From a virus (taxonomy: Duplodnaviria; Heunggongvirae; Uroviricota; Caudoviricetes), in IMG/VR virus record IMGVR_UViG_3300015214_000024, positions 329,787 through 393,786 of that record: a stretch of DNA of 64,000 bases, one strand, 5' to 3'. This document shows, in pieces, positions 1,593 through 24,252 of the stretch; position 1 is the first letter of the stretch, and every line of letters starts with the position of its first letter. Under the pieces are notes generated by a model, which saw only the letters and a program-made list of their open reading frames with translations, made no database searches and had not been told where the DNA came from. Made by a program: the position numbers and the translations under genes.

Positions 1593-1755
1593 TCTCCATA
1601 GTGTCTGTTTTAAAATAATCTTGTGGATTATTTATAATGCTTCCTTTGTTAGGACCTGACATACATTTATACAACTTAATTTGCTCACCGTCGATCACTT
1701 TCCATATAGGACGAAGTTTTGCAGGCTTTAAGTTTTTTAAATTTGAAACTTTCAT
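1573..1755 (-). CDS. Small basic hypothetical protein
   Basis: 60 aa; start overlaps upstream stop; YKCMSGPNKG motif. Confidence 0.55.
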   Translation of the reverse strand: MKVSNLKNLKPAKLRPIWKVIDGEQIKLYKCMSGPNKGSIINNPQDYFKTDTMEIDDENA

Positions 1756-2183
1756 TTTTGAATCCTATAATGTTGCGGATCATTCCAGAATCTAGCTACC
1801 TGTATTAGCTCTTTTGAAACTTCACGCAAATGGTCATCGAGCTTTTCAATTCTTCGCGATTGTTCACTGATTCTTTCAGCAATGCGATCTTCACGATCAT
1901 CAAGTGCTTCCTTGTATTCTTTCTCGAGAGCCTTCAAATTTTCCATCATTTCAGCTCGAAGCTTGGCAATATCATCACATACTTTCTGTATGTCTTTATT
2001 AAATCCTGCTGTCATATTTTCACAGTTAGCTTCAGATGTTTTTTGTTTGGTCTCTAAAACTTGAACTCGGTCTGAAAGCAATGAAAATGGCTTCTTCCAG
2101 TTATTTCGAAACAAACGAATCATAAAACCTGAAAACACAATCGCCACTATTGCTATTGGTATGATAATGTCTAACGATGCCAT
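1752..2183 (-). CDS. Membrane-anchored coiled-coil protein (possibly holin-like)
   Basis: One N-terminal hydrophobic segment (IIIPIAIVAIVFSGFMI) then a long charged heptad-like region. Confidence 0.55.
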   Translation of the reverse strand: MASLDIIIPIAIVAIVFSGFMIRLFRNNWKKPFSLLSDRVQVLETKQKTSEANCENMTAGFNKDIQKVCDDIAKLRAEMMENLKALEKEYKEALDDREDRIAERISEQSRRIEKLDDHLREVSKELIQVARFWNDPQHYRIQK

Positions 2184-2187
2184 ATTT

Positions 2188-3039
2188 TTATCCTGGTAAG
2201 TTGTTTGTTATACCCAGCAATTTTGGCAATAACATTTTTTGGGCGCTTATGTTGGTTGCTGATACCACATAGCCTTTGCCGCCACCATTAATGCGAGTAA
2301 TATCTAAAAGAATATACATCGCATTTCCATCTTCGCAGTCAAATAATACTTCTTCTGAATATCTTCTTTCACCACTGATTAAAAAATTTTGTAAATTTAT
2401 TTTAAACTCTTCACGCTGTGATTGGTCTATAAACTCCAACCATCCTTTTCGATAAAAATCTCTTTCCAACCAACCTAACATTCCTATAAGCATCTCATTC
2501 ACATAAACACAATTACCATTATTATCAATTTTTAAAAGCCCAATCGGAGATGCTTTTGCTAAGCTTTGATACATCTCTTGACTTTCTTCCAATTCTTGTG
2601 TTCGTTCTTTAACTAAATCTTCCAACTTATTCTGTTGAGTGAACACAAGCATTTCTAATCTTATGCGTTCGTGTGCTTCTTGAAGCGCTTTTAATATTTC
2701 ATCAGGAGATAAACTTTTCTCAATGTAATCAAATGCACCCTCTTTCAAAGCCGTTATTGCATTTTCCTTTGTTGCATAAGCAGTCAATATCAATGTCAAT
2801 ATGGGCCGATTAATCAAATTAATACTTTCAAACAAATCCAAGCCATTATCTCGTCCTAATTTCAAATCTAAAATGATAATATCAGGACTAAATTCGTGAA
2901 GCTTGGTTATTGCTGATTTCAGATTGAATGCTGTTTGAATTTCCACTTTCATCATAGATGCGATACCGACCAAGGAATCGGAAAAATCCTTATCGTCTTC
3001 TACAATCAACAATTTAACTGGATTCATTTCAATACCCAT
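2188..3039 (-). CDS. Response-regulator receiver (REC) + coiled coil + PAS domain protein, no output domain
   Basis: REC motifs LLIVEDD, IIILDLKL (phospho-acceptor Asp), LILTAYA, FDYIEK; linker LEDLVKERTQELEES; PAS start YQSLAKASPIGLLKIDNNGNCVYVN. Confidence 0.9.
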   Translation of the reverse strand: MGIEMNPVKLLIVEDDKDFSDSLVGIASMMKVEIQTAFNLKSAITKLHEFSPDIIILDLKLGRDNGLDLFESINLINRPILTLILTAYATKENAITALKEGAFDYIEKSLSPDEILKALQEAHERIRLEMLVFTQQNKLEDLVKERTQELEESQEMYQSLAKASPIGLLKIDNNGNCVYVNEMLIGMLGWLERDFYRKGWLEFIDQSQREEFKINLQNFLISGERRYSEEVLFDCEDGNAMYILLDITRINGGGKGYVVSATNISAQKMLLPKLLGITNNLPG

Positions 3040-3057
3040 TCAAACTTACTTCACGAG

Positions 3058-3064
3058 TATTTAT
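3058..3064 (-). promoter_or_regulatory. T4-late-type promoter (ATAAATA) upstream of the REC-PAS gene
   Basis: tatttat on + strand, about 20 nt upstream of the start; same motif precedes many structural genes. Confidence 0.6.
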
Positions 3065-3087
3065 TATAATGTTGTTCTAAAGGTAAT

Positions 3088-3786
3088 TTACATTTTTTTG
3101 TTGAATTTTAGATCTACTTGAGCATACTTATCAAGTTCACCGCTTAATGTGGCGCAGCCGTTGTGTTTTTTCATTATGTCTTGGACAATTGATAATCCCA
3201 ATCCTATACCAAATGATTTGGTAGAAATTAACGGTTCAAATAGTTGCTCAGATGACGAAGTGTCAATTCCTGGACCATTGTCATAGATAGAAATTATAGT
3301 ATGTTGATCAGTAATTGATGAAGTAATATTAACGTATCCAGCACCTTTGCCGACTTCTGGATCCATTATTGCTTCAATTGAATTTTTAAGAATATTTAAA
3401 AATACTCTATGCATACGATCAGGATCGATATTTAAATGGAGATTGGGGGAGACATCATTGTTAATTTGTATTGATGAGGGCTTAACTAAATCCTCGAGCA
3501 CTTTATCAATTAATTGACTTATATTAATTCGTCGCTTAATCAATTTAGTATGTCGAGTAAAATCAAGCAAATCATTTACTATGTTATTGCATCGATCTAT
3601 ATTTCTAAAAATTCTTGATAAAATCTCATCAATTTTTTCATCAACAACGTATTCTTCATTTAATCGATTTTGCATTAGGAATAGTGAATTGCGAATAGTG
3701 CCCAACGGGTTTTTCAACTCGTGGGCAACTACCGCAGTCAATTCACCTAAAATTTCAAATTTCTGCTTGTTTTGGTCATTAGACAT
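3088..3786 (-). CDS. Sensor-less histidine kinase (HisKA + HATPase_c, NtrB-like)
   Basis: H-box AHELKNPL, N-box VFLNILKNSIEA, G1 DNGPGI, F-box LFEP, G2 GIGLGLSIV; no TM or sensor domain. Confidence 0.92.
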   Translation of the reverse strand: MSNDQNKQKFEILGELTAVVAHELKNPLGTIRNSLFLMQNRLNEEYVVDEKIDEILSRIFRNIDRCNNIVNDLLDFTRHTKLIKRRINISQLIDKVLEDLVKPSSIQINNDVSPNLHLNIDPDRMHRVFLNILKNSIEAIMDPEVGKGAGYVNITSSITDQHTIISIYDNGPGIDTSSSEQLFEPLISTKSFGIGLGLSIVQDIMKKHNGCATLSGELDKYAQVDLKFNKKM

Positions 3787-4322
3787 TAATTTGGAGCCGT
3801 ACCGTCTGTATCGTTTGATGGCAATGAAGACATATAATCATAAGCGTCTACTGAATTTGAATCAGTAAGGGCATCGATAGCAATATATTGGTTTACCTGC
3901 CAAGTGCATACACCGCTGATATAATCAGCCATAACATTATTAAACGCTATAAATTGCGTATAATCCATAGCAATAAAGTTATATTCAGTATCAAAGCATC
4001 CGCTAAAATTACTCAAACTACCATTTGCTAAAAGCGAAGTAGCGACCTGGCTATAAATTGATCTTTTGTATATAGACACATCAAAGTGGTGACTTTGATA
4101 CCACATTCCTTGCGTCTCTAGTATTCCTATAGTAAAATTGTCAAGTTCTCTCTTTTTATAGATTTTTGTCAATGTAACTTGTTCACTCAACAGTTGATTT
4201 TCAGGTATTGCCTGTTGCGGATCATCCCATACAATATCATTATAATCGTACAAATCACCACCATTAGTGGCATTAATTCCAGGATGGTAATAGGTCAAAA
4301 CCGTAATTAAATCTGGTATCAT
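3786..4322 (-). CDS. Tail-fibre assembly chaperone-like protein (DUF4376-like)
   Basis: Paralogous to 5315..5914 (YxxIxW..., IDALTDxxxVxxY); downstream of fibre genes. Confidence 0.6.
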   Translation of the reverse strand: MIPDLITVLTYYHPGINATNGGDLYDYNDIVWDDPQQAIPENQLLSEQVTLTKIYKKRELDNFTIGILETQGMWYQSHHFDVSIYKRSIYSQVATSLLANGSLSNFSGCFDTEYNFIAMDYTQFIAFNNVMADYISGVCTWQVNQYIAIDALTDSNSVDAYDYMSSLPSNDTDGTAPN

Positions 4323-4902: not shown

Positions 4903-5313
4903 TTATTGCTTTTTACGTTTGCGAGCTTCTGATCGTTCTGTTGCTTCCAATGCAGTTTTTTGTTTATGACAAGGCTTACATAAAGTCTGTAAATTCTCCA
5001 AATCCCAAGCCCACGTTTGCCCGCTTGCTTGATATAATGGAACAATGTGGTCCAGATCCCATCCATTAGGGCCTTTTTTGTCACAAATAGTATGACATTT
5101 CGCACATTTACCTTTATCTCGTCTCCAAACTATTTTCCTAGTATATGAAGGCCAGAAATAAAATTTATATATTTGAACACATTCTTTATGCCAAGTTGAT
5201 TTAGTCAGTTTACCATTTTTCAATTTTTTAGTTATTGGCTTATTACACCATCTACATATTCCAGGTCGTATGTCATTAAAATGACAAGGTAATGGAAATT
5301 TTCTATGACTCAT
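4903..5313 (-). CDS. HNH endonuclease
   Basis: RDKGKCAKC, DLDHIVP, NLQTLCKPCHKQKT; extra N-terminal CRWC. Confidence 0.85.
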   Translation of the reverse strand: MSHRKFPLPCHFNDIRPGICRWCNKPITKKLKNGKLTKSTWHKECVQIYKFYFWPSYTRKIVWRRDKGKCAKCHTICDKKGPNGWDLDHIVPLYQASGQTWAWDLENLQTLCKPCHKQKTALEATERSEARKRKKQ

Positions 5314-5314
5314 A

Positions 5315-5914
5315 TTATAATGGATAATCAGTATCTAAAGATATTTGAGCCGCCTGAATCGACTGTTCAGTAGAAATACCCCCTGGCCCTGAACCATCGA
5401 AATTATTATTAGGCCAATAATTGGCTGGATTGAAATTATTGATAGCATTAACATCGCTGAGAGAATCGATTCGGGTTTTTAATACCCACGACCAGGCAAA
5501 AACCATAGATACATATGCGCCCATTGATACACCGAATGCCGAAAGAGTTGAACCATCCATTAGTATGTTTTGGTTATCCAAAGTCCTCCAGGAAAAATCA
5601 GCTGGCAACGTTGTTCCAACTAATACAGACGTCACTGCACCGGTGATGTTAGCCTTTGCTAATGTGTCACAGTCATATACGTTTCCTTGAAAATAAAAAC
5701 CACCATCATCTAAAAAAACATCTCGATAGTTGTTTATTTCTTTTTGTTTTTCACGCACAACCAGATCTGCCCAATCCGAATCTAGCTGAGATTGAGAAGG
5801 CAGTGGATCACCACTCTCCCATATAATTGACGAATAATCTGACGGATCAGGACTAATGCAAATTACTCCAGGATATTTTTCAGATAATAAATTCATATAA
5901 TTTTTTTGAATCAT
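5315..5914 (-). CDS. Tail-fibre assembly chaperone (DUF4376-like)
   Basis: GGFYFQGNVYDCD...FSWRTLDNQNILMD pattern typical of DUF4376; directly after fibre genes. Confidence 0.7.
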   Translation of the reverse strand: MIQKNYMNLLSEKYPGVICISPDPSDYSSIIWESGDPLPSQSQLDSDWADLVVREKQKEINNYRDVFLDDGGFYFQGNVYDCDTLAKANITGAVTSVLVGTTLPADFSWRTLDNQNILMDGSTLSAFGVSMGAYVSMVFAWSWVLKTRIDSLSDVNAINNFNPANYWPNNNFDGSGPGGISTEQSIQAAQISLDTDYPL

Positions 5915-24187: not shown

Positions 24188-24252
24188 TTGGCAATCCTTT
24201 TATTTTTTACGCAGATAAATAATTATACATTCAACAACGTATTTATTATAAG

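Follow-up and report, generated by a model that had tools for sequence, protein, structure and literature searches.

Adjacent genes for a HisKA-type histidine kinase and a response regulator are well known from the NtrB/AtoS/ZraS-like systems, and the jumbo-phage locus analysed here shares with them a boxed DHp plus CA kinase, a complete receiver (REC) and the adjacency of the pair. The best NCBIfam match of the phage kinase is AtoS (E 1e-43, far below the cut-off of that model). Unlike these systems, the phage kinase has no sensor or transmembrane (TM) segment, the receiver protein has no DNA-binding or enzymatic output, and a late-type promoter motif is present. The top Foldseek matches of the receiver protein are DgcR (PDB 6zxm) and Pseudomonas RssB (PDB 3eq2), in which receiver helix 5 continues into a long signalling helix, as it does here, whereas the phage C-terminal domain is a PAS without catalytic activity; this likeness is by domain, because the whole-protein TM-scores are below 0.5.

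Complete kinase–receiver pairs under selection have barely been described in lytic phages, and in the incomplete part of the literature that we covered we found neither this module nor such pairs in jumbo phages. A survey of jumbo phages mentions only the kinase-independent cREC, a divergent REC linked to NAD+/ADPr enzymes and never found with a histidine kinase (PMC7824862); the receiver described here is canonical and always adjoins a kinase, which places it outside that class. Annotated kinases occur also in phages MaAM05 and PT11-V22. The closest parallel in origin is phiCDHM1, whose agrD/agrB/agrC genes likewise include a phage-borne histidine kinase from a bacterial operon (PMC3901668), but that phage is temperate, its cassette is a quorum-sensing one and no phage receiver accompanies it, whereas here the cognate receiver is present.

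In the same genomic slot, two cultured phages, Atu_ph07 (gp48/gp49) and Phosso (gp453/gp452), carry a small TM-coil gene and an output-less PAS gene with a late-type motif upstream, annotated as “multi-sensor signal transduction histidine” and “PAS domain S-box protein”. A pair of this type occupies the same slot in locus L123 and another context in L125. No kinase domain or REC was detected in the Atu_ph07, Phosso or L123 pairs; the annotation of the Atu_ph07 protein as a histidine kinase is therefore wrong, and the Atu_ph07 paper does not discuss gp48/gp49. These pairs differ from our module in strand and gene order (both opposite), in having several PAS domains and no REC, and in showing no detectable homology to it; for the TM-coil proteins, homology of the Phosso type with ours was rejected (hhalign 2–5%). 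Phages CBB and 121Q have neither gene at this slot. From the non-homology of the pairs and their absence in CBB and 121Q, the combination of an output-less PAS protein with a small membrane coil protein appears to have evolved on at least two occasions in this phage group and to be accessory; the same absence indicates that the TM-coil protein is not the core holin of the wider group at this slot.

The window, by which we mean the whole stretch of 64,000 nucleotides analysed, is part of contig C39 (145 kb, 37% GC), which encodes a terminase, a tail tube and a helicase. The terminase is 46–49% identical to its homologues in PA5oct/Paride, Atu_ph07 and Phosso, and one gene downstream of the module has matches, among isolates, in Phosso and Atu_ph07 only. 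The source is an uncultured jumbo myophage related to Atu_ph07 and Phosso, with a genome of probably about 460 kb. Both two-component genes proposed in an earlier sequence-only reading proved to be intact and phage-borne (Table 1). Two features which that reading had missed, a TM-coil gene and a late-type motif inside the module, point to the likely output.

Table 1. Module, upstream neighbour and comparable pairs (window positions unless another locus is named)
Feature	Position	Strand	Basis
Single-TM coiled-coil protein, 143 aa, proposed output partner	1752..2183	-	Linkage, homology, hydropathy
REC-helix-PAS protein, 283 aa, no enzymatic or DNA-binding output domain	2188..3039	-	Pfam, AF2 model, trees, pN/pS
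TAATAAATA, T4-late-type promoter motif in the kinase/REC-PAS gap	3058..3066	-	Conservation, strand bias, likeness to T4 late consensus
Sensor-less soluble histidine kinase (DHp + CA), 232 aa	3088..3786	-	Pfam, invariant catalytic boxes, pN/pS, tree
DUF4376-like tail-fibre chaperone paralogue, variable neighbour outside the module	3786..4322	-	Similarity to the 5315-5914 gene
Atu_ph07 gp48/49, TM-coil + output-less multi-PAS gene behind a late-type motif	L119:10358-12210		
Phosso gp453/452, TM-coil + output-less multi-PAS gene behind a late-type motif	L118:14587-16136		

The kinase retains complete H, N, G1, F and G2 boxes, as had been noticed before, and its sequence assigns it to the HisKA architecture, with Pfam matches over the cut-off to HisKA (13–79, E 6e-15) and HATPase_c (121–228, E 1.5e-17). 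Among 17 aligned kinases, the phosphorylatable H22 (codon 3721–3723), E23, N26, N131, N135, D169-x-G-x-G and the G2 glycines are invariant, and the H-E-x-x-N motif keeps the residues used for both kinase and phosphatase activity. No sensor or TM input was detected: the protein starts 21 residues before His22, and the maximal 19-residue hydropathy is 1.1–1.2, as in the REC-PAS protein, which likewise shows no TM segment. One relative, P0009 (L001:10001-11104), has an extra N-terminal PAS_3 domain and keeps its REC-PAS partner. It is the only PAS-bearing member of the kinase family, it forms a nested lineage and its PAS is a different one; the domain is most simply regarded as a later gain.

The partner protein comprises REC (7–124), a signalling helix (about 112–163), PAS (161–263) and a conserved C-terminal helix (265–274), with Pfam matches to Response_reg (11–119, E 4e-21) and PAS (155–259, E 3e-7). 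The AF2 model (pLDDT 76) predicts REC, one unbroken helix at 112–163 and a PAS fold, which is followed by a short helix at the C-terminus. The residues conserved in the receiver family are D15, D16, D58 (codon 2866–2868), T86, Y105 and K108; the description of this protein as having a complete set of receiver catalytic residues and no output domain thus stands, and the receiver fold and acidic pocket are present. The true start may be Met5 (3027).

The TM-coil gene lies 4 bp past the REC-PAS stop and encodes an N-terminal TM segment (about 4–22, hydropathy 2.55), basic residues and a long coiled coil, which the positive-inside rule would place in the cytoplasm. Its product is homologous to the TM-coil family of loci L005, L007, L121 and L122 (hhalign 95.6%, E 1e-8). 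The gene directly follows the PAS gene in all nine kinase-bearing loci and also in L007 and L122. In L121 it is found without an upstream PAS neighbour, which counts against the module proposed below.

The gap between the kinase and REC-PAS genes contains TAATAAATA in 8/8 close loci and TATAAATA in L005. On C39, eight copies of the motif are on the coding strand and none on the opposite one, and seven are intergenic against 12% intergenic DNA. Within the window alone the count is not above that in shuffles (5 vs 2.9), so the candidate promoter rests on strand bias, intergenic position and conservation. The motif resembles the T4 gp55 late-promoter consensus, and we presume its promoter function from this likeness. 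Further intergenic TAATAAATA copies, also candidate late promoters, occur on the minus strand at 24240, 44923, 58528 and 60990. In an RNA-labelled run, contigs of a relative cover REC-PAS and TM-coil and none covers most of the kinase, although contigs cannot show transcription.

The surroundings upstream are less stable. The TAATG fusion of the kinase start to the preceding chaperone gene is real as an overlap at 3786, but it is not conserved: the upstream gene is an HNH gene in L001 and L115–117, and in relatives HNH or another gene takes the place of the chaperone gene. The chaperone product is 25% identical to the DUF4376 gene product encoded at 5315–5914 (E 2e-17). The location inside a late tail-fibre region is likewise true but incidental, since the cassette is a variable insertion, absent from L005 and mostly absent from L001; the kinase/REC-PAS pair therefore belongs to the conserved downstream block. 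The HNH gene at 4903–5313, whose place in every close relative is immediately upstream of the kinase, has a pN/pS of 0.33, which suggests that it has a conserved function and is not a mobile homing endonuclease.

In base composition, the two genes follow their genome. Their GC3 agrees with that of the core genes, and CATG, with an observed/expected ratio of 0.02 on C39, is absent from their 1599 bp (4.7 expected). The absence is thus real. The bias tracks each phage lineage: relatives without locus-wide avoidance have CATG in these genes. Avoidance is unequal among relatives (one CATG in 21 kb in L031, 33 in 9 kb in L117), which suggests host-specific restriction pressure.

The phage loci compared are the window and eight others that were fetched; proteins from Logan, ENA and JGI supplied all close family members. 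The two genes adjoin each other in 9/9 loci, always in the order kinase, REC-PAS, TM-coil, at identities down to 46% (kinase) and 37% (REC-PAS). Twelve further kinases are 68–83% identical and one 46%; for REC-PAS, there are eleven relatives at 71–92% and one at 37%. No member of either family was found in isolated phages, and pattern scans of IMG/VR and JGI gave no close one. With synonymous sites near saturation, the estimates of pN/pS are about 0.2 for the pair, which indicates purifying selection. The kinase has 0.23 (DHp 0.14), REC 0.16, the coil 0.11 and the PAS core, the fastest-changing part, 0.41; neighbouring genes have 0.33–0.40, i.e., are less constrained than DHp, REC and coil. 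Together with the late-type motif, these data agree with the view of the sequence-only reading that the genes form a domesticated late phospho-signalling pair of the phage, and they add that the pair is conserved.

The origin of the pair turned out to be different from the one first proposed. The operon of the closest bacterial kinase encodes a kinase, a REC-REC protein and a REC-PAS-kinase-REC hybrid; with the first of these kinases the phage kinase shares 38% identity, with that of the hybrid 21%, and the phage REC aligns to the N-terminus of the hybrid. We examined 79 bacterial genome loci chosen by kinase similarity alone, 69 of which have room downstream. A downstream REC reaching at least 70 bits on the phage REC profile is present in 37 of the 69 (the best of 49 RECs in a control MAG reaches 58 bits), and in 27 of the 37 it heads a hybrid kinase, whose own kinase part scores 18–73 bits vs 152–210 for the upstream kinase; other partners have HD-GYP or GGDEF-EAL outputs. 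Where the REC of a hybrid scores 72–107 bits, its own kinase reaches 18–80 bits vs 150–210 for the separate upstream kinase, and just one upstream kinase in 79 carries a REC of its own. The phage kinase nests among the upstream kinases of these operons (SH-aLRT 99), the kinases inside the hybrids being of another lineage, and the phage REC falls with the RECs of the operons (SH-aLRT 99), away from the NtrC-type proteins that are its best database matches; the trees are quick ML searches on short alignments, with REC groups defined partly by a score threshold. By eye, DHp helix 1 and REC helix 1 also resemble the donor pairs.

These scores and both trees argue that the phage acquired a cognate kinase–receiver pair in the native order of the donor operon, the adjacent genes descending from a linked pair, and not a hybrid that was split and reordered. 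The kinase and receiver share the donor family, as had been suggested as a check, while the PAS is of separate origin. The idea of complementary halves of one hybrid in swapped order is contradicted, since kinase, REC and PAS trace to three separate genes. No protein combining the phage-type REC with the phage-type kinase was present among the proteins examined, nor one combining that REC with the phage-type PAS among the bacterial ones; among longer proteins no fused full-length relative was found (of the 8000 candidates that were scored, generic multi-PAS proteins came out best), and multi-PAS proteins likewise crowded the result of the representative PAS-profile search. Compared with the donor operons, the phage has the same kinase subfamily (31–42% identity), the same N-terminal REC subfamily and the same order, but the sensor, REC-REC gene and enzymatic output have been lost in the phage, and its PAS is unrelated. 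The donor family itself (L034–L113) is a widespread bacterial operon consisting of a variable-sensor kinase, REC-REC and a REC-headed output (kinase, GGDEF-EAL or HD-GYP). It was found in Xanthobacter, Stellaceae, Desulfobacterales and others, and our search returned no characterised member.

The PAS domain has a history within phages. In L007, a contig of only 2 kb, and in L122, which belongs to a related large phage whose tail tube is 56% identical, a homologous helix-PAS gene without REC is preceded by ATAAATA and followed by the TM-coil gene, with no kinase adjacent. A single clade (99) unites the PAS domains of the phages, all of which have the same invariant K-x-x-L-P-x-L helix at the C-terminus; the REC-less L007 and L122 branch first within this clade (84, 93). 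The PAS domains of the donor operons lie far from it and score at most 35 bits, against 99–119 for an unrelated bacterial PAS group. These sequences are most simply explained if a phage PAS/TM-coil unit was already in place when kinase and REC joined it, and if the PAS core then diverged fast. With respect to ligand sensing (heme or flavin), the PAS fold is present, and the core is now variable (58% identity) and without residues present in the L007 and L122 domains. This order of gain is based on two REC-less sequences with moderate support, and kinase and REC may instead have been lost in the L007 and L122 lineages. Directly upstream of the PAS/TM-coil pair of L122 lies an SbmA/BacA-like transporter gene (2427–3392; over the NCBIfam cut-off, NF009036).

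We propose a three-gene late module built in two steps, in which phosphorylation controls a membrane module, and give this reading a probability of roughly 45%. Its older part would be a phage-resident, output-less helix-PAS protein coupled to the single-pass membrane coiled-coil protein. In one subclade, the cognate pair would have been added in native order, the kinase losing its sensor and the receiver becoming fused to helix-PAS. Since a matched kinase and receiver are joined to the phage’s own late sensor-fold protein and a membrane partner, the phage probably runs a private late phosphorylation circuit. REC-PAS and TM-coil would be transcribed late from their own putative promoter; the kinase, whose catalytic residues are intact, would autophosphorylate at His22 and transfer phosphate to or from Asp58 of its partner. 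By analogy with DgcR, phosphorylation may shift the signalling-helix dimer and reposition the PAS with its C-terminal helix, and this shift, to judge from gene linkage, may gate binding to the membrane protein's coil. Lacking a sensor, the kinase would serve as a timer or else signal the ATP/ADP state or the presence of a bound protein. Complex prediction lends weak support to docking of the kinase dimer with REC, at 0.56 vs 0.01 for the best control, and this textbook kind of pair may pass by likeness to solved pairs; the predictive runs agree in 79% of contacts with a partner pLDDT of 81, and the mark used was reached by 58/80 solved and 2/110 mismatched pairs, among which 7 solved ones and both mismatches fall at or below 0.60.

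The last step of the proposed circuit is the least secure: the membrane protein may be an accessory late-infection regulator, most likely of lysis timing. A late promoter and a small single-TM coil protein are the usual anatomy of lysis regulators; here, a small TM protein and a late-type motif are present. One can compare the TM-coil protein with T4 holin T, a single-TM protein that times lysis together with the soluble partners RI and RIII, its antiholins (PMC8385771); this is an analogy only, as there is no sequence relation, and T has a periplasmic regulatory domain instead of a predicted cytoplasmic coil under His-Asp control. In addition, the description of Atu_ph07 identifies no lysis genes and gives the mechanism of lysis as unknown (PMC6102473). 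Support of this kind is speculative, and we regard lysis timing as the likeliest output of the module in a tentative way. Counting against it are the accessory nature of the module, the lack of an adjacent endolysin and the lack of a convincing holin match. No endolysin was recognised next to the module in any locus read (a non-exhaustive search), and PF00959 and PF01471 had no match on the CATG-poor contigs of this phage. Profile searches revealed no homology of the TM-coil protein to a named holin family; its holin/spanin matches are weak and unspecific (PHROG hol-like, E 1.5e-4), and those of its relatives are of the kind typical of any TM plus coil. Assignment to a BhlA-type holin received no support from Pfam.

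If lysis is indeed the output, a lytic jumbo phage would decide its lysis time via a self-contained His-Asp phosphorelay of its own, and the PAS/membrane-coil pairs of Atu_ph07 and Phosso would be an independently evolved, culturable version, a possible but doubtful extension. With these undiscussed pairs in two cultured phages, signal-controlled lysis in jumbo phages becomes directly testable. The present case shows a circuit assembled from three sources, with a candidate target named.

The module might instead be directed at the host: the kinase would constitutively phosphorylate or dephosphorylate host receivers, and/or a phosphate sink or decoy would be provided by REC-PAS, so that host signalling is rewired late in infection, with TM-coil anchoring the complex. 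The donor family is widespread and includes Alphaproteobacteria, the class infected by both isolates that share the gene block; the kinase lacks any input domain and retains H-E-x-x-N, and the phiCDHM1 kinase was proposed to signal via a host regulator (PMC3901668). However, both cognate halves are always retained under strong constraint, which a pure drain would not need, and the PAS/TM-coil unit also occurs where neither kinase nor REC is present. In the MAG with which the phage was binned, the best kinase reaches 95 bits and the best REC 58, so the donor family is absent from it, although this MAG need not be the host. We consider such interference rather unlikely but still a live rival.

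An output other than lysis for the same private phosphorelay and membrane partner, for example superinfection exclusion, remodelling of the envelope or the anchoring of virion assembly to the membrane, is unlikely too. It agrees with the position of the slot among virion structural genes, with no lysis genes adjacent, with the accessory status of the module across the wider phage group and with the weakness of the holin matches, while the lysis-regulator anatomy with its T4 precedent (PMC8385771) and the role left vacant in Atu_ph07 (PMC6102473) stand against it.

The mechanism of the sequence-only reading, in which the two halves of a REC-coil-PAS-HisKA-HATPase hybrid reassemble and the PAS controls the kinase in trans, we find improbable as a whole. 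Its domain sum does equal a common hybrid layout, hybrids of this layout exist at 25–27% identity, and the PAS fused to the kinase in the P0009 lineage indicates that this kinase can take PAS input. PAS regulation of the kinase in trans is a possible mechanism. Nevertheless, the claim on origin is already contradicted by the separate genes, the gene order is that of the donor operon, the lineage with the fused PAS retains a full REC-PAS, and the PAS core is the fastest-changing part of the pair.

The reading as a chimeric assembly or as a piece of host DNA without function and in decay, to which the binning of C39 in a 65% GC bacterial MAG with 7.5% contamination might lend weight, is scarcely credible and already refuted by conservation and selection, given nine independent syntenic phage loci, low pN at saturated synonymous sites, phage-like GC3 and CATG bias, and 99%-identical contigs from a run of an independent study that span the gene junctions (1940–2986 and 3000–4239).

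The same MAG (G000) contains a set of CATG-poor contigs (C10, C15, C36, C38, C39, C47, C57, C66, C67, C75, C85, C91–93 and C100) totalling 462 kb, close to the longest contig recorded with this kinase (466 kb), which suggests one mis-binned jumbo phage genome. Host prediction gave only short DNA matches to the MAG and no telling protein identity. The low-GC contigs C87 (87 kb) and C90 (244 kb) of G000 show no CATG avoidance and are probably other phages or contaminants; a phage lysozyme gene lies on C87 at 3122–3493. An unrelated viral contig of 263 kb carries a multi-PAS histidine kinase of 500 aa (L003:7140-8642), which was ruled out as a family member and represents an unrelated viral PAS kinase.
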